Notes: generated by a model from the sequence alone, not told the origin. DNA of 64,000 nucleotides from a virus (IMGVR_UViG_3300008740_000001:1-64000), one strand, 5' to 3'. Shown: positions 19,315 to 63,842, counted from the stretch's first letter. A program made the numbers and translations.

Positions 19315-19557
19315 ATGTGGCAGTTTTGGAAATGGAATGGAAGATATATTCAGGGCGATTTGGTAAGTAAACACAAAACCAAAACTGCTGCAATTTCAAA
19401 AGCAAAAAAGGAATTGGGAAACGACGTAATATTTACAGAGAGTACATGGAAAAAAGAAGAAGTTATTTGGATAGATAGCAAAACCCATACTCCCATGGGG
19501 ATTATTTGTAAATCAACGGGGGCGAAACGGTCTCGACAGGGTAAGAAAGGAGTATAA
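19315..19557 (+). CDS. small basic hypothetical protein; 3' end overlaps tmRNA
   Basis: 80-aa ORF; last 40 nt lie inside the tmRNA 5' end. Confidence 0.55.
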   Translation: MWQFWKWNGRYIQGDLVSKHKTKTAAISKAKKELGNDVIFTESTWKKEEVIWIDSKTHTPMGIICKSTGAKRSRQGKKGV

Positions 19558-19938
19558 GAGTGCAAGTGGTCTAACGAAACAGAAGACCCTAAATTCAGTT
19601 TCAAAAAACATAATTGCCAATAACAATTATTATTTCGAAGAAAGCCGCTTAGCGGCCTAATCGGCGGGGTTGTCAATGACCTTGTTTCCCAACATTGAAT
19701 AACAGGCGGAGTCCTGCGAAAACAAAAAACCACAATGGAGACCTCGGCTTTATGAAAACATCTTCGGATGGACTACCTCACTAAATGTGAGAAAGGTGAG
19801 TGGGGCGCAACAGGTCAGTAAGCGCCGGAGGACGACTGACTATCTTTGTTAATTTGTGATAGTAAATTGACTAAACTTGTGAACGACTTGATACTGGACT
19901 TATTTTGGACGCGGGTTCGACTCCCGCCGCCTCCACCA
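19518..19938 (+). ncRNA. ssrA: tmRNA, tag (A)ANNNYYFEESRLAA*
   Basis: 5' GGGGGCGAAACGGUCUCGAC; 3' GCGGGUUCGACUCCCGCCGCCUCCACCA; G3-U70 pair; tag frame 19616-19660 ending LAA-stop. Confidence 0.95.
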
Positions 19939-22123: not shown

Positions 22124-22200
22124 GGGTCTATAGCTCAACAGCGTAGAGCAACGGACTTTTAATCCGTAGGTTCTGGGTTCAAGTCCCAGTAGACCCACCA
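22124..22200 (+). tRNA. tRNA-Lys(UUU)
   Basis: Cloverleaf; loop CU-UUU-AA; encoded CCA. Confidence 0.95.
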
Positions 22201-23123: not shown

Positions 23124-23218
23124 GGGGCTGTAGCCAAGTGGTTAAGGCAGCCGGCTTATATCCGGTTTAGCGTCTGATAAACGCGAGATCGTGGGTTCGA
23201 ACCCCACCAGCCCTACCA
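23124..23218 (+). tRNA. tRNA with UAU anticodon (Ile/AUA) and long variable arm
   Basis: GGGGCUG/CAGCCCU acceptor, A73, CCA; anticodon loop CU-UAU-AU (23155-61); 24-nt variable region; canonical T arm. Confidence 0.9.
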
Positions 23219-23237: not shown

Positions 23238-24056
23238 ATGACAGTTAAAAACATTATATTATTTGATATGGACGGTACTCTTACCGAGCCTAGACAGATT
23301 ATTGATCAGAATATGATTGATACTCTTGCTCAAGTCACTCGCAGTGGCCACGACGTGGGCATTGTTACTGGCAGTCCGATGAATTATATGGAAGAACAAA
23401 TAGGCCCACTCTTAAGTGCGCAGTATAGTGAGATCGATAGATACCACCTTCTTCCATGTAACGGTATAGAATATACCTTTTGGGAAAATGGGATTTCAAA
23501 CGCCACAGTTGGTAATACTATGGCAGAAGAATTGGGCACTTCAAACTTCCAGAATTTAATGGCGGCTCTTGTCCACCTTCAAGCAGAAGTATCTAAAACT
23601 ATGTTGGATCGCGGCCTCTCCTTAACAGGAAATTTCATTCAGTATAGGGGTGGCCTGATTAATTGGTGCCCCATCGGCCGAAACGCAACCCAACCCCAGC
23701 GCGCCGCGTTTGTAAACTTTGACCAAACGACAAACTTTCGAAATGAATATTGTCGCTTGATCAAGAAGTGGCTTAGCTGGGCCGGCTTGGAAGATAAAAT
23801 GACAGTTGTTAAGGGTGGATCCACCTCTTTTGACATATATCCAGCCGGCTGGGACAAAACTTACGCTCTGACATGGTTCGGAGATTACGAATGTTGGTTC
23901 GTTGGTGATAAATGCCACCCCGGCGGCAACGATCAACAAATTTATGAGCTTTTACAGAAGAACGGAAAAGCTTTTGAGACCACGGGACCTAATCAAACTA
24001 TTGAAATTATTGACAATATCTTGAACACCCTAGGCCCCGATAGCTCAGCAGGATAG
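23238..24056 (+). CDS. phosphomannomutase, eukaryote-type HAD-IIB (PF03332-like)
   Basis: FDMDGTLT, INWCPIGRN, SFDIYPAGWDKTYAL, FVGDK...GGND. Confidence 0.9.
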   Translation: MTVKNIILFDMDGTLTEPRQIIDQNMIDTLAQVTRSGHDVGIVTGSPMNYMEEQIGPLLSAQYSEIDRYHLLPCNGIEYTFWENGISNATVGNTMAEELGTSNFQNLMAALVHLQAEVSKTMLDRGLSLTGNFIQYRGGLINWCPIGRNATQPQRAAFVNFDQTTNFRNEYCRLIKKWLSWAGLEDKMTVVKGGSTSFDIYPAGWDKTYALTWFGDYECWFVGDKCHPGGNDQQIYELLQKNGKAFETTGPNQTIEIIDNILNTLGPDSSAG

Positions 24057-24110
24057 AGCAACGGCCTTCTAAGCCGTAGGTCGTAGGTTCGAATCCTACT
24101 CGGGGTGCCA
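24034..24110 (+). tRNA. tRNA-Arg(UCU)
   Basis: Cloverleaf; loop CU-UCU-AA; encoded CCA; 5' 23 nt overlap the PMM CDS. Confidence 0.95.
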
Positions 24111-24564: not shown

Positions 24565-25074
24565 ATGGGTTACCATTATGGAGATTTTTTAGGATATGGA
24601 AGGAACAACAAAGGTATGAGAAGAACACCGTATGATACAGTCGTGGTTAGTGGAGGATTTGATCCGATTCACGTAGGCCACGTTCGAATGATTTTAGAAG
24701 CAGCGCGAGAATATGGAGACGTTATTATCGTGGCTAATTCAGATGATTGGCTTTTGCGCAAGAAGGGATATGTATTCATGCCCTTTGAGCAGCGAGAAGA
24801 GATTCTGATGGGCATTAAGGGCGTCACCCGGGTCGAGGCCGTCGATGACACTGATGGCACGGTCTGTGAGGCTCTGAGGCGAATTAAACCTACGTATTTT
24901 GCTAACGGCGGAGATCGTCACTTGCAAAACACGCCAGAAATGCAAGTTTGTAAAGATATGAAAATTCAGATGGTTTGGAATGTTGGTGGCGGTAAGATCC
25001 AAAGCAGTAGCGACTTAGTAAAGAGTTCTAGTGACCATTTGATTAACAAGGCTAATTGGCCGGGAGCAGTGTAA
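24565..25074 (+). CDS. cytidylyltransferase-family protein (RfaE/TagD-like)
   Basis: SGGFDPIHVGH (HxGH), FANGGDR, KIQSSS. Confidence 0.9.
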   Translation: MGYHYGDFLGYGRNNKGMRRTPYDTVVVSGGFDPIHVGHVRMILEAAREYGDVIIVANSDDWLLRKKGYVFMPFEQREEILMGIKGVTRVEAVDDTDGTVCEALRRIKPTYFANGGDRHLQNTPEMQVCKDMKIQMVWNVGGGKIQSSSDLVKSSSDHLINKANWPGAV

Positions 25075-26249: not shown

Positions 26250-26825
26250 ATGACTATCCGAGAAAAAACCCGAAGAGAGCGATATGACAATAAAAAATCT
26301 GGAGCAAAAATGTACCCAATTAGTTTGTGCTGCGTTAATTTCCAATGCGACGGTAATTTGGGGTATTTACTTCGAGCCGCTGCTTGTTTTGGCGCTACTT
26401 CTGTACATGTTATAGGTTCGGTACCTGATAGGAAAACATTAAACCCGTCTTCAGGAACATTATATGATTATGTGGAGATTATCCAACATGCTAACCCGAG
26501 GGACTTCTTGGATTTTGCAGAGCGCGAAGGCTACAATATTGTATCTGCGGAAATTACTGACGGTGCGATCCCCATCTCGACTTATAGTTTCGATTATTCT
26601 AGCCATAATATTATGGTGGTGGGTAACGAAGAATCAGGCGTACCACCTGAAATTTTAAAGAATAGCGATAAAGTATACATACCAATGCCCGGTGTGGGAT
26701 ATTGCCTCAATACTTCTCAAACTGCGAATATATTATTGTACGAAGCAGTAAAAAAATACGAAAGACAACAGGAGTTTACAGAACAACTTTGGCATGATGA
26801 CTGGGAATGTTATCACTTGCCATAA
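26250..26825 (+). CDS. SpoU/TrmH-family SPOUT RNA 2'-O-methyltransferase
   Basis: GNLGYLLRAA, VVGNEESG, CLNTSQTANILLYE. Confidence 0.9.
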   Translation: MTIREKTRRERYDNKKSGAKMYPISLCCVNFQCDGNLGYLLRAAACFGATSVHVIGSVPDRKTLNPSSGTLYDYVEIIQHANPRDFLDFAEREGYNIVSAEITDGAIPISTYSFDYSSHNIMVVGNEESGVPPEILKNSDKVYIPMPGVGYCLNTSQTANILLYEAVKKYERQQEFTEQLWHDDWECYHLP

Positions 26826-26965: not shown

Positions 26966-28312
26966 ATGAAAAAGAAAAATTATATTATAGACACTAGTGT
27001 CTTTTTAACAAATGCCGAAGCAATTTTTGACTTTGGACGTAACGACATCGTTATACCACTTAAAGTTTTAGAAGAAGTGGATAAACACAAAAAACGTCAA
27101 GATGGCGTAGGTGCCCAAGCAAGGAAATTTATCAGAATTCTAGATGGCCTCCGCGAAAAGGGGTCGCTCCATTCTGGTGTACGCATCCAGAAAGGGCTGG
27201 GCTTGGCGTGCACAAGAAGTATTAAGGATACAGATCTCAGTTTATTGCCAAGAGACCTCAATTCTAAAATACCGGATCATATTATAATTGCTACCGCACT
27301 GATGGTCGCGAAAGAGGATCCAACAAGAAAGACAATAATGGTTTCCCGCGACATTAATCTTCGGGTTATCTGTGACGCCGTTGGTCTGGATGCACAAGAC
27401 TATATTGCTACCAAAGCGGTCGAAAGCTTGGAAAAGCTGTATACCGGCTTTGATACTTACTTGGTTGATGATCAAACAATTGATCAGTTTTATGCTGGTG
27501 ATAATGTGTTTGTTGACGATGAGGATCTTAATGGCGGCAAATTTTATCCAAACCAGTATTTGATGTTAGTTTCAAATGCAAATGAGAAAAAGACAGCTTT
27601 AGCCAAATACCAAAGTCCCCAAGGGCCATTAAAAAAGCTAGTTCATGATCATTTGCCCACATTTGGCATCCGATCCAGAAACAAAGAACAGGCCTTTGCA
27701 ATTGATCTGTTATTAAATCCAGAGGTAGAGGTTGTTACGCTGATTGGTAAAGCCGGCTCAGGGAAGACGCTTTGTGCCCTTGCTGCAGGCTTAGAACAGG
27801 TTATGGGGCACAAGAATTCAAAAGAAGACTCATTGTATACGAGAATGGTTGTCTCTCGTCCAATTATGCCTATGGGCCGCGACATCGGCTTCCTGCCGGG
27901 CTCAATGGAGGAGAAGATGCATCCATGGCTCATGCCTATCCAAGATAACCTACAACTTTTGATGGGTAACGACAAAGTAATGTTAGAACAATACATGGAA
28001 AAGGGAAAAATAGAGATTGAGGCATTAACTTATATTAGGGGACGTTCAATTTCAAAAGCCTTCATAATTATTGATGAGGCGCAGAACTTGACTGCGCACG
28101 AAATTAAAACCATCATTACGCGTGCTGGTGAGGGCACGAAGATCGTCTTGACTGGGGATATAGAACAGATCGACAACGCTTATACCGATGAGACCTCAAA
28201 CGGTCTAGCTTATGCTATCGAGAAATTTAAGCACTATGATTTATCGGGACATATCACCTTGCGAAAAGGAGAGCGCTCTAAAGTTGCCACACTTGCTGCT
28301 AAAATACTATAA
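26966..28312 (+). CDS. phoH: PhoH-family ATPase with N-terminal PIN domain (PhoH2/YlaK-like)
   Basis: YIIDTSV PIN start; GKAGSGKT Walker A; IIDEAQN; YIRGRS. Confidence 0.92.
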   Translation: MKKKNYIIDTSVFLTNAEAIFDFGRNDIVIPLKVLEEVDKHKKRQDGVGAQARKFIRILDGLREKGSLHSGVRIQKGLGLACTRSIKDTDLSLLPRDLNSKIPDHIIIATALMVAKEDPTRKTIMVSRDINLRVICDAVGLDAQDYIATKAVESLEKLYTGFDTYLVDDQTIDQFYAGDNVFVDDEDLNGGKFYPNQYLMLVSNANEKKTALAKYQSPQGPLKKLVHDHLPTFGIRSRNKEQAFAIDLLLNPEVEVVTLIGKAGSGKTLCALAAGLEQVMGHKNSKEDSLYTRMVVSRPIMPMGRDIGFLPGSMEEKMHPWLMPIQDNLQLLMGNDKVMLEQYMEKGKIEIEALTYIRGRSISKAFIIIDEAQNLTAHEIKTIITRAGEGTKIVLTGDIEQIDNAYTDETSNGLAYAIEKFKHYDLSGHITLRKGERSKVATLAAKIL

Positions 28313-31014: not shown

Positions 31015-32280
31015 TTGACAAAAAAGACAATTGTAACCTTATCCGACCATCCATTGAGTCCGTCCGGTGTAGGTACACAAACTAAGTATGTGTTAGAGGC
31101 ACTACTAAAGACGGGCAAATATAAGATCATATCTTTCGGTGGCGCAATCAAACACAACGATTACCGCCCCATCAAGGTAGAGGAGTGGGGTGATGACTGG
31201 ACGGTCTTCCCTGTTAATGGATATGGCGACCATCAGATGATCCGGTCGATCATGAGAACAGAACGTCCAGATTTATTGTGGTTCATGACCGATCCACGTT
31301 TCTTTGGATGGCTCTGGGAAATCGAAGATGAAATTCGCTCCCTGTGCCCCATGTTGTATTATCATGTTTGGGACAATTATCCTCTGCCGGATTTTAATAA
31401 GCGGTGGTACGACTCAACGGATGTCATTGCGTGTATTTCAAAAGTGACGCACGACATTGTTAAGAATGTCTCCCCAGAGGTAGAATCGCATTATCTGCCA
31501 CATGCTGTTGATCCAAACATTTTTAAGACATACTCGCCCGCAGATGTTAAAGAGTTTTCAACTGCAGTGCTGAATGATGGCGACGTTTGGGAAGATAAAG
31601 TAACCTTTTTCTGGAACAATCGAAACGCCCGACGCAAACAAACCGGCTCCGTCATGTTTTGGTTTAAGGAGTTTTTAGACAAGGTGGGTCACGATAAGGC
31701 GCGCCTAATTTTACATACAGATCCTAGAGATATGAACGGCCAAGATTTGGTCGCGATTATCCACAACTTGGGCTTGAACGCCGGCGAAGTCTTGTTATCG
31801 ACTGCTAAGCTCCCTCCTGAGTCTATGGCTCTTATGTACAATATGGCAGATTGTACGATCAATATTGCAGACGCAGAAGGGTTCGGTTTAGCAACGCTAG
31901 AATCACTCTCTTGTGGAACTCCTATCATCGTTAACATGACTGGTGGTTTACAGGAACAGGTCACGGATGGGGAAAACTGGTTCGGTATTGGCATTGAACC
32001 CACATCAAAATGCATTATCGGATCCCAGCAGGTACCATATATTTACGAAGATCGTGTATCTAAAGAGGATTTCCTCAAAGCCTTAGAAGACATCTACAAC
32101 ATGACAGCCGAAGAAAGATTCGAATTAGGACTTCAAGGCAGAAACCATGTCATGACAAATTACAACTTTAGTGAATTTCAAGATTCTTGGAGAGAACTGG
32201 TTGAAAAGACAATGGAATCTCACGGCTCTTGGGAAACTCGAAAAAATTATCAACGTTGGCACTTTATGGAGGTTGCATAA
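31015..32280 (+). CDS. GT4 glycosyltransferase
   Basis: AEGFGLATLESLSCGTPII (ExE7 motif), RNARRK. Confidence 0.9.
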   Translation: MTKKTIVTLSDHPLSPSGVGTQTKYVLEALLKTGKYKIISFGGAIKHNDYRPIKVEEWGDDWTVFPVNGYGDHQMIRSIMRTERPDLLWFMTDPRFFGWLWEIEDEIRSLCPMLYYHVWDNYPLPDFNKRWYDSTDVIACISKVTHDIVKNVSPEVESHYLPHAVDPNIFKTYSPADVKEFSTAVLNDGDVWEDKVTFFWNNRNARRKQTGSVMFWFKEFLDKVGHDKARLILHTDPRDMNGQDLVAIIHNLGLNAGEVLLSTAKLPPESMALMYNMADCTINIADAEGFGLATLESLSCGTPIIVNMTGGLQEQVTDGENWFGIGIEPTSKCIIGSQQVPYIYEDRVSKEDFLKALEDIYNMTAEERFELGLQGRNHVMTNYNFSEFQDSWRELVEKTMESHGSWETRKNYQRWHFMEVA

Positions 32281-33555
32281 ATGAAAAAGAAAGTTATTAT
32301 TAGAGGACCAATTCTCACGCGGACTGGCTATGGAGAGCAAGCTAGATTTGCGTTTCGAGCCCTGAAGTCCCGTCCGGATTTGTTTGATGTATATGTGATG
32401 CCTACAAATTGGGGCCACACTGGTTGGACCGTTGAAGATGATGAAAATCGCAGAGAGCTTGATCAGATTATTCGGGAGACTCCGATATATATCAATGAGT
32501 GTAACGAGGCCCAAGTCCAGCCATTTGACATCTCTATTCAGGTTACTATCCCGCAAGAGTGGGAGCCATTGGCTGCCAACAATATTGGCTTCACAGCCGG
32601 CACAGAAACGACACACATTTCTGCGAACTGGATAGAGAAATCAAATGAGGTCGACAGAATCATTGTAGTTTCAGAACACACGCGCTCTGGATTTGTGAAT
32701 ACTGAATATAACGCAAAGGCGCGCAATGGTGCCGATGTCGTATTGAGATGTGCTACTCCTGTAGATGTTGTGAATTTTCCTGTTAAGCATGTAGAACCCG
32801 AAGAACTGGACTTTGAGCCAAGTACGGAGTTCAACTTTTTAACAGTCGCACAATGGTCGCCCCGTAAAAACTTGGAACATACAGTTAAGTGGTTTATCGA
32901 GGAGTTTATCGATAACGAAAATGTCGGCTTAATTCTCAAGGCCAACATTGCAAAGAATTGCCTTCTTGATAGGGTTGCGATAAATCAGCGCCTGTCTGAA
33001 CTAACGGCTAAATATCCAGATCGGAAATGCAAGATCTATCTTTTGCACGGTAACCTCACTGATGAGGAGATGGCCGGCCTGTATCAGCATCCCAAGGTCA
33101 AAGCTTTGGTTAATATTGCTCACGGAGAAGGGTTTGGTCTGCCGATGTTTGAGGCTGCAGCTAACGCGTTGCCGATTGTTGCTCCAAACTGGGGAGGCCA
33201 GAAGGACTACTTAAGTGCGGAAGTTACCACTAAGCGAAAGGGCAAGAAGACCACAAAGACGCGATGTTTGGCCACAAAGGTTGATTATACTCTAGGGCCA
33301 ATCCAAGCGGAAGCGGTTTGGGAAAATGTCTTAATTCCAGAATCATCATGGTGTTATCCAACAAAGACTGCTTATAAGAAAGCACTCCAGACGGTATATA
33401 AGAACCACAATAGGATGGTTAGTGATGCCAAGAAGCTGCAGGCTAGTATTGTAGAGAATTTTTCCGAAGAAAATCAGATTGAGAAATTTGTCGACTCTGT
33501 GCTTAAAACCACTGGGGCGAGTTCTTCTGAATTTAGTAAGGTTGTTACATTATGA
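32281..33555 (+). CDS. GT4 glycosyltransferase
   Basis: GEGFGLPMFEAAANALP; QWSPRKN. Confidence 0.9.
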   Translation: MKKKVIIRGPILTRTGYGEQARFAFRALKSRPDLFDVYVMPTNWGHTGWTVEDDENRRELDQIIRETPIYINECNEAQVQPFDISIQVTIPQEWEPLAANNIGFTAGTETTHISANWIEKSNEVDRIIVVSEHTRSGFVNTEYNAKARNGADVVLRCATPVDVVNFPVKHVEPEELDFEPSTEFNFLTVAQWSPRKNLEHTVKWFIEEFIDNENVGLILKANIAKNCLLDRVAINQRLSELTAKYPDRKCKIYLLHGNLTDEEMAGLYQHPKVKALVNIAHGEGFGLPMFEAAANALPIVAPNWGGQKDYLSAEVTTKRKGKKTTKTRCLATKVDYTLGPIQAEAVWENVLIPESSWCYPTKTAYKKALQTVYKNHNRMVSDAKKLQASIVENFSEENQIEKFVDSVLKTTGASSSEFSKVVTL

Positions 33556-34817
33556 CAACAAAGGTGCTATATCAAGGTCAGGTTTATGACCCAAGCGGAT
33601 ACGCCGTCGCCGGCCGAGGCTATATTCGTTCAATGTATGATTACATTAAGGCCAATAACTTAGATATGGAACTTAGAGTTGTGGCTGTTAGTGCTGACCA
33701 GCATAAGAGCTTGACAGAAGAAGAGACCAAGTTCCTCGATTCTCTAGGTTTTGATTCAGCAGAGGCTATGGACGAGTGGATTGAAGATGAAGATTATCAT
33801 TATATTTTTCATCACCCACCGGTATATGCTTGGAAACTGCCAATTACCAAGAAGCTTGCGGCACGCTCATTAACTACAACGTGTTTTACTGTGTGGGAAA
33901 CAGACGAGATCCCACCTGTTTGGAATGACATTTTTGAATCTTTTGATGTTGATAAGGTTGTGGTGCCCTGTAAGTGGAATCGTGACAGTTTTGTACAAAG
34001 CTTGCAGAAATTTGATCGCCCCCGCCCCGTCGAAATGGTGCCACACCTTATCAACGATAACTTTATCGAGTCGGACAACGCAGTTACTGAAATTGAAGGG
34101 TTCCCGATGAATAAGGATGCCTTTAAGGTATTGACAGTGGGCCAATGGACAGATCGTAAAGCACTCAAAGCAGTCGTAAAGGCCTTCTTGATGGAGTTTA
34201 AGGATAATACAGACTGTGAACTCATTGTAAAAACATATGGCAATATTCAAGATCCACGACCGGAGATGCAGACTGCGCAACAGCAATCGATTGCTCAGGA
34301 GATGGTTATACTGAAACAGTCTATCCTCGGGAACAGTTTGACCGATTTACCTAAGTGTTCTTTACACCTATTGTATGGTCTTTTTCCCAAAGATCAGATG
34401 AACTATTTGTTTAAAGAAGCAGACTTGTTTGCTTTACTTAGCAAGGCAGAAGGCTTCGGCTTGCCTATCGCAGAAGCAATTGCTAGCGAAACACCTGTTT
34501 TGGTCCATGACAAGGGTGGCCATGTTGGCTTTACCGATCCTGAGAATAATTTTTTAGTTGACTGTCACCTTACTCCCGCTAATTGTACTGTATTTCCTTT
34601 TGTTTACTCCTGCGATAGCAACTGGTTTGATACTGATTATCTTTCAGCCAGAAAACAATTTCGAGCGGCATACAATGCATGGAAGGAAGACAAGGCAGCA
34701 TATACCGCTCGCGCCACCGCCTCGAAGGCGTATATGTTAAACGTCACCGGCGATAGCTTAGTATTAGGCAAAAAGCTGGTTGATTTTGTTGTAGGCGAGA
34801 ATGCACAAGAGGACTAG
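33552..34817 (+). CDS. GT4 glycosyltransferase
   Basis: AEGFGLPIAEAIASETP; GQWTDRK. Confidence 0.9.
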   Translation: MTTKVLYQGQVYDPSGYAVAGRGYIRSMYDYIKANNLDMELRVVAVSADQHKSLTEEETKFLDSLGFDSAEAMDEWIEDEDYHYIFHHPPVYAWKLPITKKLAARSLTTTCFTVWETDEIPPVWNDIFESFDVDKVVVPCKWNRDSFVQSLQKFDRPRPVEMVPHLINDNFIESDNAVTEIEGFPMNKDAFKVLTVGQWTDRKALKAVVKAFLMEFKDNTDCELIVKTYGNIQDPRPEMQTAQQQSIAQEMVILKQSILGNSLTDLPKCSLHLLYGLFPKDQMNYLFKEADLFALLSKAEGFGLPIAEAIASETPVLVHDKGGHVGFTDPENNFLVDCHLTPANCTVFPFVYSCDSNWFDTDYLSARKQFRAAYNAWKEDKAAYTARATASKAYMLNVTGDSLVLGKKLVDFVVGENAQED

Positions 34818-56273: not shown

Positions 56274-59200
56274 ATGGCCGAAACAGATACTGAAACTACA
56301 GAAACAGAAGAAACACCTTCTGACGAGACCAGCTATATTGATTATCAGTCAGTGCCCTCGTCCGCCAGCGATTGTGATCTTGTAGAAGAAGAGGTAGTTG
56401 AAGAAGAACAGGATTGCCCAACGTGCACTCCAAACCCGAAAGCTCCTCTGATTGACTGGACCAAGACAACGGACACTACTCCATTCTTGAATGAGAGAAA
56501 GTGCATGTATTCTATTTGCATCCGCACTGATTATGAGGGCACCGGGGGCAACCAGCTTCAGACACGCTTAGACGAATATGTAGAAGAAGGTGTCATCAAA
56601 TTATTGGCGTATTATGACAAGGCGTTAGATGAGAATACTGTTGCGGCCATGGTGAGCATCGCCGGCGCCACTGATCACTTCATCCCGCCAAGACCTAAGC
56701 TTAAAATGAAGGCTCTCATTGAGATCGACGCCAATGAGTTTGATAAGATGCCTTCCTCGACAGATGTTCCGGAAGACAGTACAGTAGATGAAGAGCAGCA
56801 AGACGAAGTAACAATACCAGACATGTCCGCCACGATTAACATCGAAGGTGGCGATGAAAAGTTTAAGAAAATCGTGCATGGCTTCGAGGCGTATGCAAGA
56901 TATCAGGCAATATATTATAAAATCCAGCGAGGAAAAGTAACCTTTCCCGGCGGCCAAATGGTCAATTTGTTACATGAGGCCAAACATCTTAGAAAAGTTT
57001 ATCCGGCTATAAAGAGATTCCTTAGAACAAAAGGTTGGGTCCTCCGCGAACGCCGGGGAATGTCCAAGATAGGTCAAAAGCCCGGGCTGAAGTTGGCAAA
57101 CAAAGTAGAGTTCGGTTTCGATTCAGAATATAAAATTATATCTGTTAAGGTGTATCAACACGGCACTTGCGAGGAATCTCCTGTCGAATATAAGGATATG
57201 AAATTATATGCCTTACAGGGCACATATCCTTTCGACCGACCCACCACCATGGCATTGCTTCCAAATTTAGATGCCATGGAGGACGATTTGACTCGTCGGG
57301 AAGGTATGATGCCATGGACAGAGTTTGTTCAGACATATATTTATCCGACTCCTACGGTTAACGAAGGTGTCGATCTAACAGCAACGACTACCGCTCTTGT
57401 CGCCGCCTCCACTGGTACTGCTACCGATACTGATTTAGAAACATTAACAAAAGCGGCGGTTCAATATAGCGATGAAAACGCCATGGCCGCGAAAACTCCC
57501 GGCTCTTGGGAAGATGCCTCGTCAGATGAACACTATCACGGCGGCGGAGCCATGGCGGATCGCGATTGGAACCCATGGGCCGAAGGCGCCACCGATGGTA
57601 TGACTGCCGAAGAGTACACAACAGCCATGACTGAGTACTACGAGAATACAGTCGATAGCAAAACATTAGATTATGATGAACAAGTAGCAGCATTATGCAA
57701 TGATGACTTCGCCGGCTGGGGAGATGAATTCGTCGACGGGTTTATGGATGAACTGTTCAGCATCTGGGATGCTATTCAGTACCAGTTCCAGAACTATTTG
57801 TGCATGTCTCCTGACGAGCGGGAGCAGTTACTCACGAATCTGCAAGAGATGAACAATCAGGTTGCGGCAGAGGCTTTTGCGGAATACGTCGCTGTTCTAA
57901 TTGGCTTTAGCGAGATGATTGAATCTATGTTTGAGGGCTTGGACGAACTTAAGGATCTTAAAGACCTCTATCCCGGGGCAATGGACAAGATTAAACTTTG
58001 TGGCCTTTTTAATCTGCTTTTGGCATTTGCAGAATGTCTAGTTGCTGGCTTGGACTTCTCAGAGATGTTGGAGCCCATTATTGCTGCTGCCTTATCGAAT
58101 ATGGATCCAAAGAGTTTTGAGAAGCTGTTTGTTGGTCTCCCTCCCGACCGTCAAGCTGCCGTTATGGCCGCAGTCGAGGCAGAGCTTGGTTCCCACGTTA
58201 TGCCATGGGAGGCTTATGAGATGCAAGGCCAGCCTGACCCGGCCGCACATACGGCATACGGCTCAGAACCTCATTCTGGAACGGTAGTGACATGGGGATC
58301 CGGCGGCTTAAATACCGAGAAGGCTGCAGCCAGACAGGATCCTTCTTACATATCACCAAAAGAAATCTCTTTAGCTAGGAAGATGGAAAACATTCTGGGC
58401 GATGACCCCGAATCTGGAGACTACTTCAGACTGATTATGGATCTAGACGGGGACTCTACTTGGAGCACTCTCGCGGAGTCTTTCGGCCTGCAAAATGATC
58501 TGGAAGACGTATATTATGCAGAATCTGGATTTAGTAAATTATCGGCCGATGGGTGGGACTCCCCCGGCTCGGATTATAATCTCATGGTTGGTCATATTAA
58601 TGATTTAATTGAACAAGCCAACAGCACCGGCGTCCAGTATGCAACGACTGTCGACCGCAGCAAAACAATCACTTATACTGCGACTTATCAAGATGCCTTA
58701 ACTGAATACTGTGATGATGCTTTTGCTGATGCTTTTATGGCGACTGATGATGGTGAGATGGGTATGTCTGCCGATGAGTGGAAGGCTGATTGTGCCACGT
58801 CATCCGCCGCAATTGCTTATGCAGAAGCCGCAGCAGAAGCCGCAGACGCAGCACAGGCAGGAGAGGCTACATACGGGTCTGAGGGTCCATACGGCACAAG
58901 AGGCTCCCTCGGCGCCGCAGCAGGTGCAACGGTAACGACCTTGTTGTCTGTATATGCGCAGCAGTTATTAGAATACTATGTTGAACATGGGCTCTTAGAA
59001 GAACTCATGGACGGATTAAACAAGCTCCCCGGCGCCGAAATTGTTGCTAAAATTATTGCGATGTTTGACTGCGTAGTGCCGCCCTTGTTCGACCCCCCAT
59101 TATTCGACTTTTTGAAAACTCTAGAAATCGACTTTTGTAATAACCAATATGGTATTGTACTTCCGAGATTACAGTCTTTGCCGATTCCGAACTTTAAAGA

Positions 59201-62200
59201 TTTCTTCAAATATCTTTTAGAATATGCAAAACAGATCTTACTTTATATATTGTTCCGATTATTGCTTTATATACTTACTAAGATATTATTTATGCTTTTC
59301 GACTCACTATGTAAAGCATTATCAACACTAGGAGAAGCAGCCTCAAATGCTTTGGCCGACGCCGCATGCAATGCTATGTCGAATGCTGGAGGTTTCTTGG
59401 GCGATGTTGCAGAGGAGGCTTCCAAGGATGACATGGAATACAATCCTGAAACTGGATTAGAACAGCCAGTTGAGGGTTCTAGTTTCTGTGAGGATCCGCC
59501 TAGAGACTTTCTCTCGTGTATCAAGGAGGCCTTCTGTGGGCCACAAGCAACAGATGAGCAAGCAACCGACACAATGAACCAGATGATGAGCACATATGGT
59601 GGTATCACTGAAGAGGACGCTGCGCAAATGGCTAATACTGAAGCCGTCAATCAGTTGGTTGCAGACATGTCTTCATGCTTGACTGGCGCCGAGATGACCG
59701 ACTTATTGCTTGGGCGCCCCAACCCTGTTGCGCAGCAAATGATTCAAGAAGTCGTCGCGACAGAAAATCCCGCCTTCGCGTCTGTATTGGGCAGCACTGG
59801 CCAAGTTGGTGATTTGTTTAAGAACATCGGTGATATGATGCCAATGGAGTTCCGGGCCAAACTAAGAGATGAGGTCAGTCCTCAGTCTGGAGAGGAGATG
59901 CCCGCCAATCCATCGTTATGTGTAACTAAGTCAGATGTGGATAGGTTTAGGCAACTAAGACAAACAATTTTGACGAACAAGGAACCTGACGACGGTACCG
60001 GAACCACTGGTACTACACCGGCACAGGCAGACCAACAGTTCGACGCTATGCGCGGTAGGGCTTTGAATGATTTGGCCGAGGTTGCAGATCTGCTGCAGGG
60101 CGGTCCAGAGAGCTTCATTGCCAACAACCTGCCTCCGATCTTAGGAGAGCCAGATGAGAATGGGTGCGTTCCTCCAAACGCTATTCTTCCCCGCGAACCG
60201 GAAGAACTAATGGATCTGCTCAGTTCTTCAAACGAAAAGCTATATGATATTGTCGGCCGGGCATTCAATAGAGATATTATGGGCCGTTATGGCTTTCTCA
60301 ACATGGTCTTGTCAGACACAAACGGAGTTCCGTATACTCGCCACCACCGCAAAGCTCGTCGAAATATCATGTACAGTGACAGCTATGGCGATGCCTTTGA
60401 AATTTTTGGAATTGAGCCAACTGCCGGTGATTCCATCGAAGATTCAGACATTCCTTTCTTCTTAAAACCCCTGTTAGCCAGAGAGCGCGGCTATTATCCA
60501 GAAATAGTTGGACAATATTTAATCGATCATCTTAATAACGAAGAGCATTTGGGCGATGGTTATGAATCAACCACCACCTACGTGGCTGGTTCGACATCCA
60601 CCTATGAATCCCCCGTGGGAACAGTTATAAAATCAGGAGATTATCCGAGAGATGACAAAGGTGCCCTAATGGGTACAGAAGAGAATCCGTTTGTTGAAGA
60701 AGGATCTAAAGATCCAGATTTGACATTGACATTCAAGGATGCAAACAAGGGGCTAAATTTGCCGATGTTGTCAGACGATATGCAGTTTTCAGAAGGATTC
60801 AAACTTGAATATCTCTCTTATATTATTGAAGAAGATGAAGATGGGGTTGCTTCTGCAAATACTGACAATGTGTATCAATTAAATGTAGTAGAGGTTACTA
60901 ATGAGGCGGCCCTTGCTCCAGCAAACATAGCAGAAGCCCAAGCACTAGCGGATCAAAGCGACCACGCACTGGGAGACCTTGGCACCTATGAGGGTACTGA
61001 GGATGAGATCTACTCGTTAACCATATATGGTTCTTTGTCCGAGGAAGCAGAAGAACTGAGATCAGCCTATGATCTTACTCAATTAGATGCATCTCCACAG
61101 GTTAATCTATGGAATCAGTACCTTATTGCACAATACCAAAAGCTTGGTTTAGACGACGAGTCGGCCGCTTTGTTCAATACTTACGCAGCCTTCTATGGCT
61201 CTGGCGCCGGAAATGTTACGCATGATAACATCATGAATACGCTTTTGGGATATATGGGCAAAAACATTGCCGCAAACACGCCAGCCTTTAAATTCGGCTA
61301 CGATGCCTCAACAGATGACGACCTCGACATCACAGACAAAGCATACATGTCCCCAGAAGACTATGAGGGTACCCCGAAGTTGTTCGCACAGTGGGTGGTA
61401 GAAGATCTTGTGCCATCACTCGGCCCGGATTATGTGCGCGAATCCAACGGCAAGCCTCGCTGGCGAAAAGTTAAGAAATATATCAAAGAAAACCAAATTA
61501 TGGGTACATCAAACCACTCACGCTTGGAATTTTTGAACCCATCAGAGTTTGGTGGGAGTTGGATGGCACCGCCATTCTATATCGAGCCTCCGGTGTATGA
61601 AGGTTGGTTGGGCATTCGAGATGCATTGATCCCCGAAGTAGATGGAAAGGATCCGAAGCGAGTTCCTGTGTGTAATTTCGAAGATATTAAAGATCGCGTA
61701 GATGAATTGACAAAGAAAATGCCAGATGATCCTCGCTTATCAGAATGCCCCGATTGTGTTGTAGAGTTACCTTATTCTAGAATTCTCGACCGTGCTGCAG
61801 CTTCTGGTATGGAAGGTCCGATTTTAGCCATGATTCGAGTTTACGTCTTGGAAGAAATGCTGAAAGCCATGCCTGTATTTTCTAATTTTAAAGCAGTAAT
61901 TCCTGAAGTAATGGACTATACGTATGTTGAATACATCATTGCTAAGATGAAAGAAGACTTTGTTGAAAATCTAGGTCGAAAACGTGGGTTCCTGAAGGGT
62001 GACGCACTATGGTACACCTTCTTGGAGCAGTGCGTACAGTCATATGCCAGACAAATTCAGCTAGACGGAAGAGAGCCTTCCTATGATGTTCAAGAGGCCA
62101 TGGATAAGCTGAATGCACTCCAGAAAGACTTTCATTATCCAAGCGAAGAGGATCTCTATACTGCTAAGCGAAAGGCTGGTGAGAATCCATGGGAGAGCTA

Positions 62201-63842
62201 TGGAGTCGACGCAGAAGAACAAGACTCAGAAATTGTCTTTGGCCGAGAAGTTACCAAGACTACAAAATTAGCATGGTACCGACGTTGGGCCCTTCTTCAA
62301 GCCGTTAAGGATACTGAGGAATATGCAAACGTGATTCTTCGTTCGTTGATTGAGGAACAGCTGGAATATATGGCTGATAGGTTAGAGACCTCTTTGGACT
62401 CCATTGACATGAAGCCGGAGATTACTAATATCTACAAATACTTTATTGGCTCAAGTGGCATGTGTGCTGGTAACATCGAATTTACGCCAGATTTAGAGTC
62501 GAGCACCGGAGGAGATGTGTTTAACGTCGCCGCCGATTTAGATGACAACCCTCTTAACCAATATGCTGCATCCGAGTTGGATGTGAAATTTAAGGTTGTA
62601 GAAAGCTCTTCAGGTACTTCCACGGTTGATGATCCAATTTCCAGATTTAGCACAGGTGAGTTCATATTAGAAAAATATATAAGAGTTTACGACAAGGAAG
62701 ATCTGGGAGTTACCGAAATAGATTTACCAGAATCAGTTTCTACGAGAGATGACAAGTTACGCGGTGTTGTCAACATTGACGAGTGGAAAACGTGGTTGGA
62801 GTCAATCTCTGACGAATTGGGTGATAGTAAACTATCTGAGTATTTTGGTGATTTGGCGTACATATATGAAACAGATGAAAACGGAGATCCAACTGGGGAT
62901 CCGACCGGAATCGAAGGCTCTATGGGCGTGGCTTATGGATTAAGGCTCAGTTATGTTCCTCCACAAGATGCGGTTAATGCTCTCAGCGGCTCAGTCCTCC
63001 CCGGCCTGCAGGAAAATGCTTCGTGGGCTACGTGGCAATCTGAGGCATTAAAAGAGAAAGCGTTTTTCTTAGCCCCTCCACAATACGATTATACGGATTT
63101 AAATGTAACAGACGTTACTTTGTATAATTCCTCTGACGAAGAGATGGAGGCCACTACAGGCACTACGGAGACGCAGGACACTATTTTGGACATTGAAAGT
63201 GGAGTCTACCCCGGAACATATACCATTAGGGAGGCCGGTTTTATCATACCTTTGGCATATGCAGAATATGATGCATTAGATCATACGATTTCAGATCATA
63301 TTAATCAAATCGAAGAAGAAATGGACCTAACATGTCTCGCGAATGATCTTATTGAAACTCCAGAGTTTGAGATGCTGTTCCAGTATGTGTTCCCCCTAAA
63401 CAGAATTACATCGCTAATGAGCATTTATGTTGGGCGCGCCTTCTTAATGTCAATTGGAGAAAAGGTTTTAGAAATGGATCCAAAGGACATTCTCAACCTC
63501 ATGTCGGGAGGATTCCCTATACCTGATAACGCCGCCGGCGAATGGCAGGCGTATGCACTAAGAAGGGGGCAAGGCAGATGGGGAGCGACATACGACAAGT
63601 GGGATTTCGACTTCTTATTTAGAAGAACAAAGAAAAGGCTAGTAAGAATGTTTAGAACTTACTTTAAATCTAGGGAGTTTTTGTCTAACAAGGATGATGA
63701 TAATATCGGCGGAGGCAGTCACTCTGATGGCGAGTCTGATCGCAACAAGACTCGTAATCGGCCCAACAAAAATAAGGGCCTAGGTTCTCGCAAGATGCGC
63801 CGTAGGCGCCGGGATCGTCCATACGACAAAAATGGAGAGTAG
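56274..63842 (+). CDS. giant acidic virion/baseplate-associated protein (2522 aa)
   Basis: Single uninterrupted ORF between spike and gp25-like genes. Confidence 0.7.
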   Translation: MAETDTETTETEETPSDETSYIDYQSVPSSASDCDLVEEEVVEEEQDCPTCTPNPKAPLIDWTKTTDTTPFLNERKCMYSICIRTDYEGTGGNQLQTRLDEYVEEGVIKLLAYYDKALDENTVAAMVSIAGATDHFIPPRPKLKMKALIEIDANEFDKMPSSTDVPEDSTVDEEQQDEVTIPDMSATINIEGGDEKFKKIVHGFEAYARYQAIYYKIQRGKVTFPGGQMVNLLHEAKHLRKVYPAIKRFLRTKGWVLRERRGMSKIGQKPGLKLANKVEFGFDSEYKIISVKVYQHGTCEESPVEYKDMKLYALQGTYPFDRPTTMALLPNLDAMEDDLTRREGMMPWTEFVQTYIYPTPTVNEGVDLTATTTALVAASTGTATDTDLETLTKAAVQYSDENAMAAKTPGSWEDASSDEHYHGGGAMADRDWNPWAEGATDGMTAEEYTTAMTEYYENTVDSKTLDYDEQVAALCNDDFAGWGDEFVDGFMDELFSIWDAIQYQFQNYLCMSPDEREQLLTNLQEMNNQVAAEAFAEYVAVLIGFSEMIESMFEGLDELKDLKDLYPGAMDKIKLCGLFNLLLAFAECLVAGLDFSEMLEPIIAAALSNMDPKSFEKLFVGLPPDRQAAVMAAVEAELGSHVMPWEAYEMQGQPDPAAHTAYGSEPHSGTVVTWGSGGLNTEKAAARQDPSYISPKEISLARKMENILGDDPESGDYFRLIMDLDGDSTWSTLAESFGLQNDLEDVYYAESGFSKLSADGWDSPGSDYNLMVGHINDLIEQANSTGVQYATTVDRSKTITYTATYQDALTEYCDDAFADAFMATDDGEMGMSADEWKADCATSSAAIAYAEAAAEAADAAQAGEATYGSEGPYGTRGSLGAAAGATVTTLLSVYAQQLLEYYVEHGLLEELMDGLNKLPGAEIVAKIIAMFDCVVPPLFDPPLFDFLKTLEIDFCNNQYGIVLPRLQSLPIPNFKDFFKYLLEYAKQILLYILFRLLLYILTKILFMLFDSLCKALSTLGEAASNALADAACNAMSNAGGFLGDVAEEASKDDMEYNPETGLEQPVEGSSFCEDPPRDFLSCIKEAFCGPQATDEQATDTMNQMMSTYGGITEEDAAQMANTEAVNQLVADMSSCLTGAEMTDLLLGRPNPVAQQMIQEVVATENPAFASVLGSTGQVGDLFKNIGDMMPMEFRAKLRDEVSPQSGEEMPANPSLCVTKSDVDRFRQLRQTILTNKEPDDGTGTTGTTPAQADQQFDAMRGRALNDLAEVADLLQGGPESFIANNLPPILGEPDENGCVPPNAILPREPEELMDLLSSSNEKLYDIVGRAFNRDIMGRYGFLNMVLSDTNGVPYTRHHRKARRNIMYSDSYGDAFEIFGIEPTAGDSIEDSDIPFFLKPLLARERGYYPEIVGQYLIDHLNNEEHLGDGYESTTTYVAGSTSTYESPVGTVIKSGDYPRDDKGALMGTEENPFVEEGSKDPDLTLTFKDANKGLNLPMLSDDMQFSEGFKLEYLSYIIEEDEDGVASANTDNVYQLNVVEVTNEAALAPANIAEAQALADQSDHALGDLGTYEGTEDEIYSLTIYGSLSEEAEELRSAYDLTQLDASPQVNLWNQYLIAQYQKLGLDDESAALFNTYAAFYGSGAGNVTHDNIMNTLLGYMGKNIAANTPAFKFGYDASTDDDLDITDKAYMSPEDYEGTPKLFAQWVVEDLVPSLGPDYVRESNGKPRWRKVKKYIKENQIMGTSNHSRLEFLNPSEFGGSWMAPPFYIEPPVYEGWLGIRDALIPEVDGKDPKRVPVCNFEDIKDRVDELTKKMPDDPRLSECPDCVVELPYSRILDRAAASGMEGPILAMIRVYVLEEMLKAMPVFSNFKAVIPEVMDYTYVEYIIAKMKEDFVENLGRKRGFLKGDALWYTFLEQCVQSYARQIQLDGREPSYDVQEAMDKLNALQKDFHYPSEEDLYTAKRKAGENPWESYGVDAEEQDSEIVFGREVTKTTKLAWYRRWALLQAVKDTEEYANVILRSLIEEQLEYMADRLETSLDSIDMKPEITNIYKYFIGSSGMCAGNIEFTPDLESSTGGDVFNVAADLDDNPLNQYAASELDVKFKVVESSSGTSTVDDPISRFSTGEFILEKYIRVYDKEDLGVTEIDLPESVSTRDDKLRGVVNIDEWKTWLESISDELGDSKLSEYFGDLAYIYETDENGDPTGDPTGIEGSMGVAYGLRLSYVPPQDAVNALSGSVLPGLQENASWATWQSEALKEKAFFLAPPQYDYTDLNVTDVTLYNSSDEEMEATTGTTETQDTILDIESGVYPGTYTIREAGFIIPLAYAEYDALDHTISDHINQIEEEMDLTCLANDLIETPEFEMLFQYVFPLNRITSLMSIYVGRAFLMSIGEKVLEMDPKDILNLMSGGFPIPDNAAGEWQAYALRRGQGRWGATYDKWDFDFLFRRTKKRLVRMFRTYFKSREFLSNKDDDNIGGGSHSDGESDRNKTRNRPNKNKGLGSRKMRRRRRDRPYDKNGE

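Follow-up and report, generated by a model that had tools for sequence, protein, structure and literature searches.

To date, a tRNA-Ile(UAU) that works independently of the lysidine synthetase TilS has been described in Mycoplasma mobile and, by gene content, in Bifidobacterium, Neorickettsia, and some lactobacilli (PMC3575796). In the M. mobile type, an ordinary 76-nt class I tRNA carries a UAU anticodon of the unmodified type in place of the lysidine-bearing CAU, and it is served by an adapted isoleucyl-tRNA synthetase (IleRS), which has Arg865 in M. mobile. The IleRS of Escherichia coli charges UAU inefficiently, and a single Trp905-to-Arg change corrects this defect (Taniguchi et al. 2013, PMC3575796); the Trp residue is conserved in species that bear tilS (PMC3575796). 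The gene described here lies in a stretch of viral DNA of 64,000 nucleotides (IMGVR_UViG_3300008740_000001:1-64000), hereafter the window. The phage genome that opens with these 64 kb comes from a marine metagenome, is 203,859 bp long, and bears direct terminal repeats. ARAGORN called the gene as a 95-nt tRNA-Ile(tat) at 23124–23218 (+), and it contains two consecutive hairpins, the first with UAU in its loop (arm 1) and the second with GAU (arm 2). This two-arm tRNA is like the M. mobile type in its UAU of the unmodified type, in its A73, and in an A37 suited to N6-threonylcarbamoyladenosine (t6A), and it faces the same two problems, i.e., recognition of U34 by IleRS and misreading of AUG. 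Unlike that tRNA, it has a second, GAU-bearing hairpin and, as proposed here, would rely on an unadapted host enzyme.

Three other groups of RNAs invite comparison. The allo-tRNA(UAU) genes are abundant in metagenomes and long-armed, with "possible five-stem-junction structures" (Mukai et al. 2017, PMC5389517; review PMC7609411). After a change of UAU to CUA they gave no serine suppression; a link with transposons or toxin-antitoxin systems was suggested, and most of these genes were judged to be probably non-translational (PMC5389517). The window gene shares with them the long-armed UAU layout and the five stems. However, allo-tRNAs have acceptor/T stems of 8/4 or 9/3 bp, a D arm like that of tRNA-Sec (long stem, tetraloop), and serine identity through G73 or U73, whereas the window gene has a 7/5 split, a 3-bp D stem with a 10-nt loop, and A73. 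By their main-text description it is therefore set apart from the allo-tRNAs, and a GAU loop or IleRS is mentioned in neither main text (PMC5389517, PMC7609411). The nematode nev-tRNA-Ile(UAU) also has UAU, a long extra arm, and A73 (Hamashima et al. 2012, PMC3333845), but it is a true class II tRNA derived from tRNA-Leu, with determinants for leucyl-tRNA synthetase (LeuRS) in its D and V arms, and it accepts leucine only (PMC3333845). The two-arm family lacks these determinants and has a 3′ part like that of tRNA-Ile. Finally, in the tRNA-like structures (TLS) of turnip yellow mosaic virus (TYMV TLS-Val) and brome mosaic virus (BMV TLS-Tyr), the anticodon-like loop that a viral RNA offers to a host synthetase serves for identity alone (PMC9976931), and the BMV TLS rearranges to bind tyrosyl-tRNA synthetase (TyrRS) (PMC9976931). 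These structures are non-decoding 3′ ends of plant-virus genomes, whereas here the mimic would sit inside a decoding tRNA. Full-text literature searches yielded no description of a GAU-bearing second arm on a tRNA.

The window gene is a real, selected tRNA and a new structural variant of tRNA-Ile. From its sequence and those of its relatives, we propose, with a probability of about one half, that arm 1 decodes AUA and that arm 2 presents GAU to the IleRS of the host. The RF00005 model of Rfam scores the gene at 61.3 bits against a gathering score of 29, and all canonical elongator features are present (7/5 stems, U8, A14, G18G19, and the T-loop UUCRA). An earlier interpretation of the window made from the DNA alone, referred to below as the sequence-only reading, had claimed a 95-nt tRNA with a UAU arm and a second hairpin at 23170–84; the sequence, ARAGORN, and Rfam agree with it. 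The normal acceptor stem, A73, CCA, and T arm that it listed are all read in the gene, with G1·U72 at the end of the acceptor stem.

Relatives were collected from viral, metagenome, and genome collections with patterns that specified the D arm, the UAU loop, and the UUUAG linker alone and left arm 2 free. The scans recovered 21 distinct relatives. A 4-bp hairpin with a 7-nt loop is kept as arm 2 in all of them, and the loop contains CUGAU in 20, the remaining one having CUGAG. The last two loop positions vary (AA, UA, AC, GA, or AU), as do the unpaired positions neighboring CUGAU; the UUA linker is invariant in the D-arm subfamily of the window gene. The alignment of these 21 sequences is 98.6% paired in the five-helix structure, with changes on both sides in 13 of the 24 pairs, values that none of 500 shuffles reached, and slid registers drop to 35–50% paired. 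These both-side changes involve six of the seven acceptor pairs, two pairs of arm 1, two of arm 2, which is 100% paired, and three of the T arm. The sequence-only reading had named random V-loop sequences among homologs as an outcome that would speak against its proposal; this outcome was not observed, since CUGAU is kept where the loop was left free, and the stems covary. When the loop of arm 1 was left free instead, the true tRNA matches were the same five viral genes, all five with UAU. Pattern matches L004-L007, L009, L011-L013, L015-L020, L028, L034, L043-L047, L049, and L050 were discarded as chance matches in coding DNA. A pseudoknot between the GAU of arm 2 and AUC at 46–48 was considered and rejected: all four bases occur at position 47 and nothing compensates for them, and AUC is retained in the lone relative with a GAG loop.

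Arm 2 cannot be classed as a variable arm of the class II type. Across 113 tRNAs for Leu, Ser, and Tyr from the same loci, 0–1 nt precede the extra arm, 1–3 nt follow it, and its loop is mostly 4 nt, whereas 68 two-arm genes mostly have 3–4 nt before arm 2, 5–6 nt after it, and a 7-nt loop. A loop of the CUGAU type occurs in none of these ~113 class II tRNAs. In addition, positions 15 and 48 covary as a Levitt pair: of 44 genes, 20 have G:C and 19 have A:U (the window gene has G15-C48), and no such relation links 15 to 47. This covariation identifies the last base after arm 2 as nucleotide 48 in a core of normal fold; the five bases that follow the arm are thus a complete class I variable loop. 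The sequence-only reading had spoken of a variable arm; the extra hairpin is real, but it is not of the class II type and it precedes a full 5-nt variable loop. The two hairpins together fill the place of one anticodon arm, in the order position 26, hairpin 1, 2–4 nt, hairpin 2, and positions 44–48.

The 3′ part of the gene is close to tRNA-Ile(GAU). CUGAUAA, recognized by the sequence-only reading as the canonical loop of that tRNA, is indeed the commonest anticodon loop in genuine phage tRNA-Ile(GAU) genes (12/26), and AGGUC follows the anticodon stem of genuine tRNA-Ile(GAU) in the same place as AGAUC in the window gene. Nucleotides 48–93 of the window gene match the class I tRNA-Ile(GAU) of Streptomyces phage Byblos at 85%. 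In another two-arm gene, L065, the segment from arm 2 through the T arm matches the tRNA-Ile(GAU) of Stenotrophomonas phage YB07 and Streptomyces phage Annadreamy at 89–92%. From the comparison of YB07 (CGCCC-CUGAUAA-GGGCG-AGGUC) with L065 ((A)GCGC-CUGAUAA-GCGC(G)-AGGUC), it follows that arm 2 together with its A·R flank corresponds to a five-position anticodon stem. Relative to the tRNA-Ile(GAU) of these three phages, the two-arm gene is alike in CUGAUAA, in the AGGUC or AGAUC variable loop, in the T arm, and in A73. It differs in the insertion of a 17-nt UAU hairpin plus 2–3 nt between position 26 and the GAU arm, in an A·R mismatch as the first pair of the GAU stem, and in loop positions 37 and 38, which are free to vary. 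Nucleotides 7–51 match a class I tRNA(CAU) of Agrobacterium phage Atu_ph07, which has the same D arm, at 84%. Among class I siblings, L014 and L121 have UAU but no arm 2, and the first 26 nt of L014 are identical to those of the window gene. The gene resembles a composite of an AUA decoder (5′ part) and a tRNA-Ile(GAU) (3′ two-thirds), and it may have originated by fusion or duplication.

This design is found on many tRNA bodies. When the viral collection was scanned, independently of the D arm, for a UAU loop followed in order by a CUGAU loop and a T loop, 110 matches were obtained, ~36 being the estimate for chance; 84 of the 110 can form the acceptor stem, and clean parsing yielded 56 unique genes. 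Of these 56, 24 have a D stem of 4 bp, as in class I tRNAs, for example L065 (GCUC-AGUGGUUA-GAGC). Features left free by the pattern are uniform: the stem of arm 2 has 4 bp in 47 genes, and it is preceded by a 2–4-nt linker and followed by a 5–6-nt segment, typically R plus AGGUC, AGGUU, or AGAUC. An A·G or A·A flank lies at the base of arm 2 in 44 genes. A73, which the pattern did not fix, occurs in 55 of the 56 genes and, overall, in 65 of 66 two-arm genes as compared with 53% of other phage tRNAs. At the first pair, 58% of two-arm genes have G1·U72, as compared with 14% of the remaining phage tRNAs of these loci (odds ratio 8); such weak pairing might make the 3′ end of the tRNA easier for IleRS to handle. 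Two cultured Synechococcus phages, SynMITS9220M01 and DSL-LC02, also carry the two-arm tRNA.

In the loci collected here, arm 2 is found exclusively with UAU. Among 812 unique phage tRNAs from all loci, 65 genes carry an extra arm with a CUGAU loop, all of them with UAU; two cases that seemed to contradict this are a UAU gene called out of register and a T-arm overlap. As the loci had been selected for their UAU genes, the unbiased part of this comparison is the non-UAU background.

The two loops differ in their decoding features. Arm 1 has U33 and A37 throughout, though most scan patterns demanded these bases. In arm 2, the base at the place of 37 is U in 25 of 56 genes (45%), whereas genuine tRNA-Ile(GAU) genes have A37 in 26 of 26 cases and U37 in none; A37 is likewise present in 98% of U36 tRNAs and a purine at 37 in 98% of all phage tRNAs. 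The arm 2 loop of the two cultured Synechococcus phages is CAGAUUA, in which GAU is kept and U33 is lost. Because of the frequent U at this place, arm 2 is unlikely to decode; it is selected for G-A-U and not for the features needed by every decoding loop.

The codon read by arm 1 is common in this phage, as the sequence-only reading had stated: ATA accounts for 730 codons, i.e., 20% of the Ile codons and 11.7 per thousand. Its meaning was examined in 55 protein alignments with relatives of ~51% identity, from which the relatives' own ATA codons were excluded. Positions with ATA in the phage face Ile in 40% and Leu in 15% of cases; ATT/ATC positions face Ile in 47–49%, and true Leu codons face Leu in 66%. 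ATA therefore means isoleucine in this phage.

The identity elements of the gene were compared with published rules. In E. coli, the strong determinants of tRNA-Ile are A73 and the anticodon G34/L34-A35-U36, where L is lysidine (PMC9976931). The window gene has A73, and GAU is present in arm 2 and absent from the decoding arm. The minor determinants are C4-G69, U12-A23, C29-G41, and D-loop G16, D20, and D21 (PMC9976931); the window gene has U20, U20a, and C29-G41 in both arms. LeuRS of E. coli needs A73, A15-U48, G18G19, and A20a (PMC9976931); the window gene shares A73 and G18G19 but differs in its G15-C48 and U20a. Bacterial tRNA-Tyr is marked by A73, U35, and G1-C72 (PMC9976931), whereas both arms have A35 and the first pair is G1·U72. 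Bacterial tRNA-Ser is marked by a long variable arm, G73, G1-C72, and G2-C71 (PMC9976931); the window gene has A73 and U72, and of the required pairs only G2-C71 is present. Its UAU anticodon also separates it from the lysidine-dependent tRNA-Ile2(CAU). The sequence-only reading had described the D arm as Leu/Tyr-type and had raised mis-charging by LeuRS. The D arm is not diagnostic, since the same one occurs in the class I tRNAs L014 (UAU), L121 (UAU), and that of Atu_ph07 (CAU), and mis-charging by LeuRS is weakened by this and by the G15-C48 pair and the missing A20a (PMC9976931).

In the proposed mechanism, the UAU of arm 1 would read AUA on the ribosome, and host IleRS would charge the tRNA with isoleucine. 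Arm 2 would be a tRNA-Ile(GAU)-type anticodon arm retained beside the decoding arm, and it would present G34-A35-U36, the triplet that ordinary bacterial IleRS reads, because this enzyme accepts U34 poorly. A single tRNA would then hold its identity anticodon apart from its decoding anticodon and would have no need of TilS. A phage that brings a UAU tRNA into a host with a Trp-type IleRS has an identity problem, to which a GAU hairpin on an A73 body would be the simplest answer. The suggestion of the sequence-only reading that the V-loop serves as an IleRS identity element is accordingly retained as the best-supported interpretation, given A73, the restriction to UAU, the behavior of UAU toward IleRS (PMC3575796), and ATA as an Ile codon, and it is still an interpretation of sequences. 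Since two hairpins replace a single anticodon arm, either of them could stack on the D stem. Possibly, though more tentatively, the tRNA undergoes a conformational switch at a pseudo-symmetric three-way junction under the D stem, with GAU stacked for IleRS and UAU stacked for the ribosome. Hairpin 2 would occupy the anticodon-arm position when IleRS binds, and hairpin 1 would occupy it on the ribosome. In this version, the phage would have a route to TilS-independent AUA decoding with any ordinary host IleRS.

Several observations weigh against presentation of GAU to IleRS. As a class I synthetase, IleRS contacts the anticodon at the distal end of the L-shaped tRNA, and it would reach arm 2 only through a rearrangement that is itself conjectural. 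The minor determinants C4-G69, U12-A23, and G16 are absent from the window gene, which has G4-C69, C12-G23, and U16. t6A37 is a strong determinant for bacterial-type IleRS (PMC9976931), and with U at the place of 37 in 45% of genes, recognition via arm 2 must do without it. The class I siblings L014 and L121 show that arm 2 is not always needed. The D-arm-independent scan demanded both loops; hence, it gives the spread of the design, not an association between its parts. Pfam and PHROGs searches of 20 window proteins found no hallmark that would place the phage and point to its host and the IleRS type. Finally, the sequence was matched in marine DNA metagenomes only and in no RNA runs.

If arm 2 is read by IleRS, the gene would be the first natural decoding tRNA in which the identity and decoding anticodons are physically separate. 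It would represent a third solution to the AUA problem, beside lysidine/agmatidine and adapted synthetases, and would explain how a phage can supply an AUA decoder without host TilS or a special IleRS. It would also offer a natural scaffold for codon reassignment without touching synthetase recognition. Whatever the mechanism, this is a widespread tRNA architecture under strong selection, undescribed in the literature searched, and annotation pipelines label the two-arm gene as a plain long-armed tRNA-Ile or miss it. Since SynMITS9220M01 and DSL-LC02 are cultured carriers, the question is directly testable.

Among the alternatives, the best placed, which we consider rather unlikely, is that the tRNA is an Ile-charged AUA decoder whose arm 2 is kept for another partner or purpose. 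It might be a site for a modification enzyme or a phage protein, a decoy for a nuclease or toxin directed at tRNA-Ile(GAU), a means of tuning the tRNA to avoid AUG, or a stabilizing or processing element. Conservation of the loop attests selection without naming the reader, and positions 37 and 38 of arm 2, which matter to E. coli IleRS, are free to vary. UAU tRNAs misread AUG on E. coli ribosomes (PMC3575796), so a fidelity device would be useful. Antitoxin-like genes adjoin the two-arm gene in Synechococcus phage DSL-LC02, and five-stem UAU tRNAs have been tied to toxin-antitoxin loci by Mukai et al. (PMC5389517). Yet the strict link with UAU is expected of an identity aid and not of a general decoy, the literature searches found no tRNA-Ile-specific nuclease, and pairing of the loop with the linker in a pseudoknot is unsupported. 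The sequence-only reading had itself mentioned a decoy against anticodon nucleases, for which no support emerged. To our knowledge, IleRS is the only protein that reads G34-A35-U36 specifically, which also counts against another partner.

It is improbable that the gene encodes a tRNA-shaped RNA outside translation, either regulatory or tied to a mobile element or toxin-antitoxin system. In E. coli, six allo-tRNA(UAU) variants gave no suppression and two of them were toxic (Mukai et al. 2017, PMC5389517), and the failure to find the two-arm gene in RNA runs would suit such a role. However, an Ile-charged tRNA would also fail in that assay, because UAU was changed to CUA and serine was needed at the reporter. 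All core tRNA features are present in the window gene, including the covarying Levitt pair and the encoded CCA, and it lies within a cluster of tRNAs for AAA, AGA, and AAC in a phage with 730 ATA codons to be read.

A dual decoder, in which UAU would read AUA and GAU would read AUU/AUC so that one tRNA serves all three Ile codons, is slightly more improbable still. Both loops have 7 nt, the hairpins are topologically equivalent with respect to the core, both anticodons specify isoleucine, and the phage has no separate tRNA-Ile(GAU) among the tRNAs called by ARAGORN. Against these features stand the pyrimidine at the place of 37 in 45% of arm 2 loops, where all 26 true GAU tRNAs have A, and the loss of U33 in the cyanophage versions. 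Furthermore, an ordinary tRNA-Ile(GAU) lies within a few kb in 24 of 92 carrier loci, and the stem of arm 2 consists of 4 bp plus an A·R mismatch instead of 5 bp.

Least probable of all is a class II-like tRNA charged by LeuRS, seryl-tRNA synthetase, or TyrRS, with AUA partly read as another amino acid: the long extra arm, an A73 that suits LeuRS and TyrRS, the drawing of the gene by ARAGORN as a long-variable-arm tRNA, and the precedents of the leucine-charged nev-tRNA-Ile(UAU) (PMC3333845) and the serine-charged allo-tRNAs are countered by the missing Leu, Tyr, and Ser determinants (PMC9976931), by linkers and a loop of arm 2 unlike those of the 113 true class II tRNAs, by the plain class I tRNA-Ile-like bodies of many family members, by the alignment of ATA with Ile and not with Leu, Ser, or Tyr, and by the invariant CUGAU, which is left without a reason.

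Table 1. Parts of the two-arm tRNA gene and neighboring RNA genes in the window.
Feature	Position	Strand	Details
Whole tRNA gene	23124–23218	+	95 nt; encoded CCA at 23216–23218; A73 at 23215
Acceptor stem, 5′ strand GGGGCUG	23124–23130	+	7 bp with 23208–23214 (CAGCCCU); G1·U72
D arm GCC-AAGUGGUUAA-GGC	23133–23148	+	3-bp stem, invariant in relatives; A13·A22, A14, G15, G18G19
Arm 1 GCCGG-CUUAUAU-CCGGU	23150–23166	+	UAU at 23157–23159; U33 and A37 present
Linker UU + A	23167–23169	+	A opposite G23185, the conserved A·R apposition at the base of arm 2
Arm 2 GCGU-CUGAUAA-ACGC	23170–23184	+	GAU at 23176–23178
G + AGAUC	23185–23190	+	Class I-type 5-nt variable loop (44–48); C23190 is nucleotide 48, Levitt partner of G15
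T arm GUGGG-UUCGAAC-CCCAC	23191–23207	+	
tRNA-Lys(UUU)	22124–22200	+	Neighboring phage tRNA (ARAGORN, Rfam)
tRNA-Arg(UCU)	24034–24110	+	Neighboring phage tRNA (ARAGORN, Rfam)
Phage tmRNA	19518–19938	+	Tag ANNNYYFEESRLAA; ARAGORN; Rfam, 120 bits; same RNA-gene cluster

The gene belongs to a larger set of phage RNA genes. According to ARAGORN, the other phage tRNAs read GGC, AAA, AGA, AAC, and UUA, and an initiator-like CAU tRNA is also present. A tRNA-Gly lies 4 nt downstream of the tmRNA. In three other loci (L001, L003, and L008), a tmRNA lies within ~300 nt of the two-arm tRNA; within this group of phages, the two genes thus travel as companions. The surroundings of the two-arm gene contain no promoter or terminator dedicated to it. 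Genes for a class I synthetase of the Ile/Leu/Val/Met type are missing from this phage and from five huge carriers, and this phage also lacks a TilS-type PF01171 domain. A BLAST search with the tRNA against E. coli genomes and plasmids gave no match, and a megablast of the region against phages gave only unrelated matches to tRNA-Arg and tRNA-Lys.

The CAU tRNA of the phage is located outside the window (genome G000:C1:142929-143004, +) and bears two hallmarks of initiators, A11-U24 and, at the bottom of the anticodon stem, three G-C pairs. Oddly, these are combined with G1·U72, a U2·C71 mismatch, and U73. A role as a decoder of AUA of the lysidine type is unlikely for this tRNA.

Some family members are easily misread by automatic annotation. 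The two-arm genes of L083 and L101 were called "tRNA-Stop(tta)" by ARAGORN, with the arm 1 loop UUUUAUACC read one base off, and genes of this type could be taken for ochre suppressors. In the GenBank record of DSL-LC02 (OR032571.1; L157), the two-arm tRNA at ~103865–103959 is unannotated; it lies directly after antitoxin and AbrB/MazE/SpoVT-family genes and directly before a tRNA(CAU). The two-arm gene of L001 is adjoined by a 98-nt tRNA (L001:2906-3003, −) with a Leu-like D arm, a long extra arm, G73, and 7/5 stems. Its anticodon loop is CUGUCUC, with the Asp anticodon GUC and U at 37; GUC is among the commonest allo-tRNA anticodons (Mukai et al. 2017, PMC5389517).

The tRNA cluster of the window also contains a gene for a SpoU-family RNA 2′-O-methyltransferase (26250–26825, +), which ends 1 nt before tRNA-Asn. 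Its scores against TrmH, RlmB, and TrmL are equal and weak, and it is assigned to none of TrmL, TrmH, or TrmJ. A homolog with 26% identity lies ~600 nt from the two-arm tRNA in L058, L079, L114, and L151, which represent one other lineage. This putative methyltransferase could modify a phage tRNA, e.g., at wobble U34; it belongs with the candidates for another partner of the tRNA and is not taken as evidence. A 448-aa fusion of a PIN domain and a PhoH-like ATPase (26966–28312, +) is encoded directly 3′ of tRNA-Asn.

Farther along the window are three tandem paralogous glycosyltransferase genes (31015–34817, +; 421, 424, and 421 aa; phrog_2170), and upstream of these lie a phosphomannomutase-like gene (23238–24056) and a cytidylyltransferase-like gene (24565–25074). 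Together, these genes suggest a phage sugar-modification module. Near the end of the window, positions 56274–63842 (+) are occupied by a single open reading frame of 2,522 aa.

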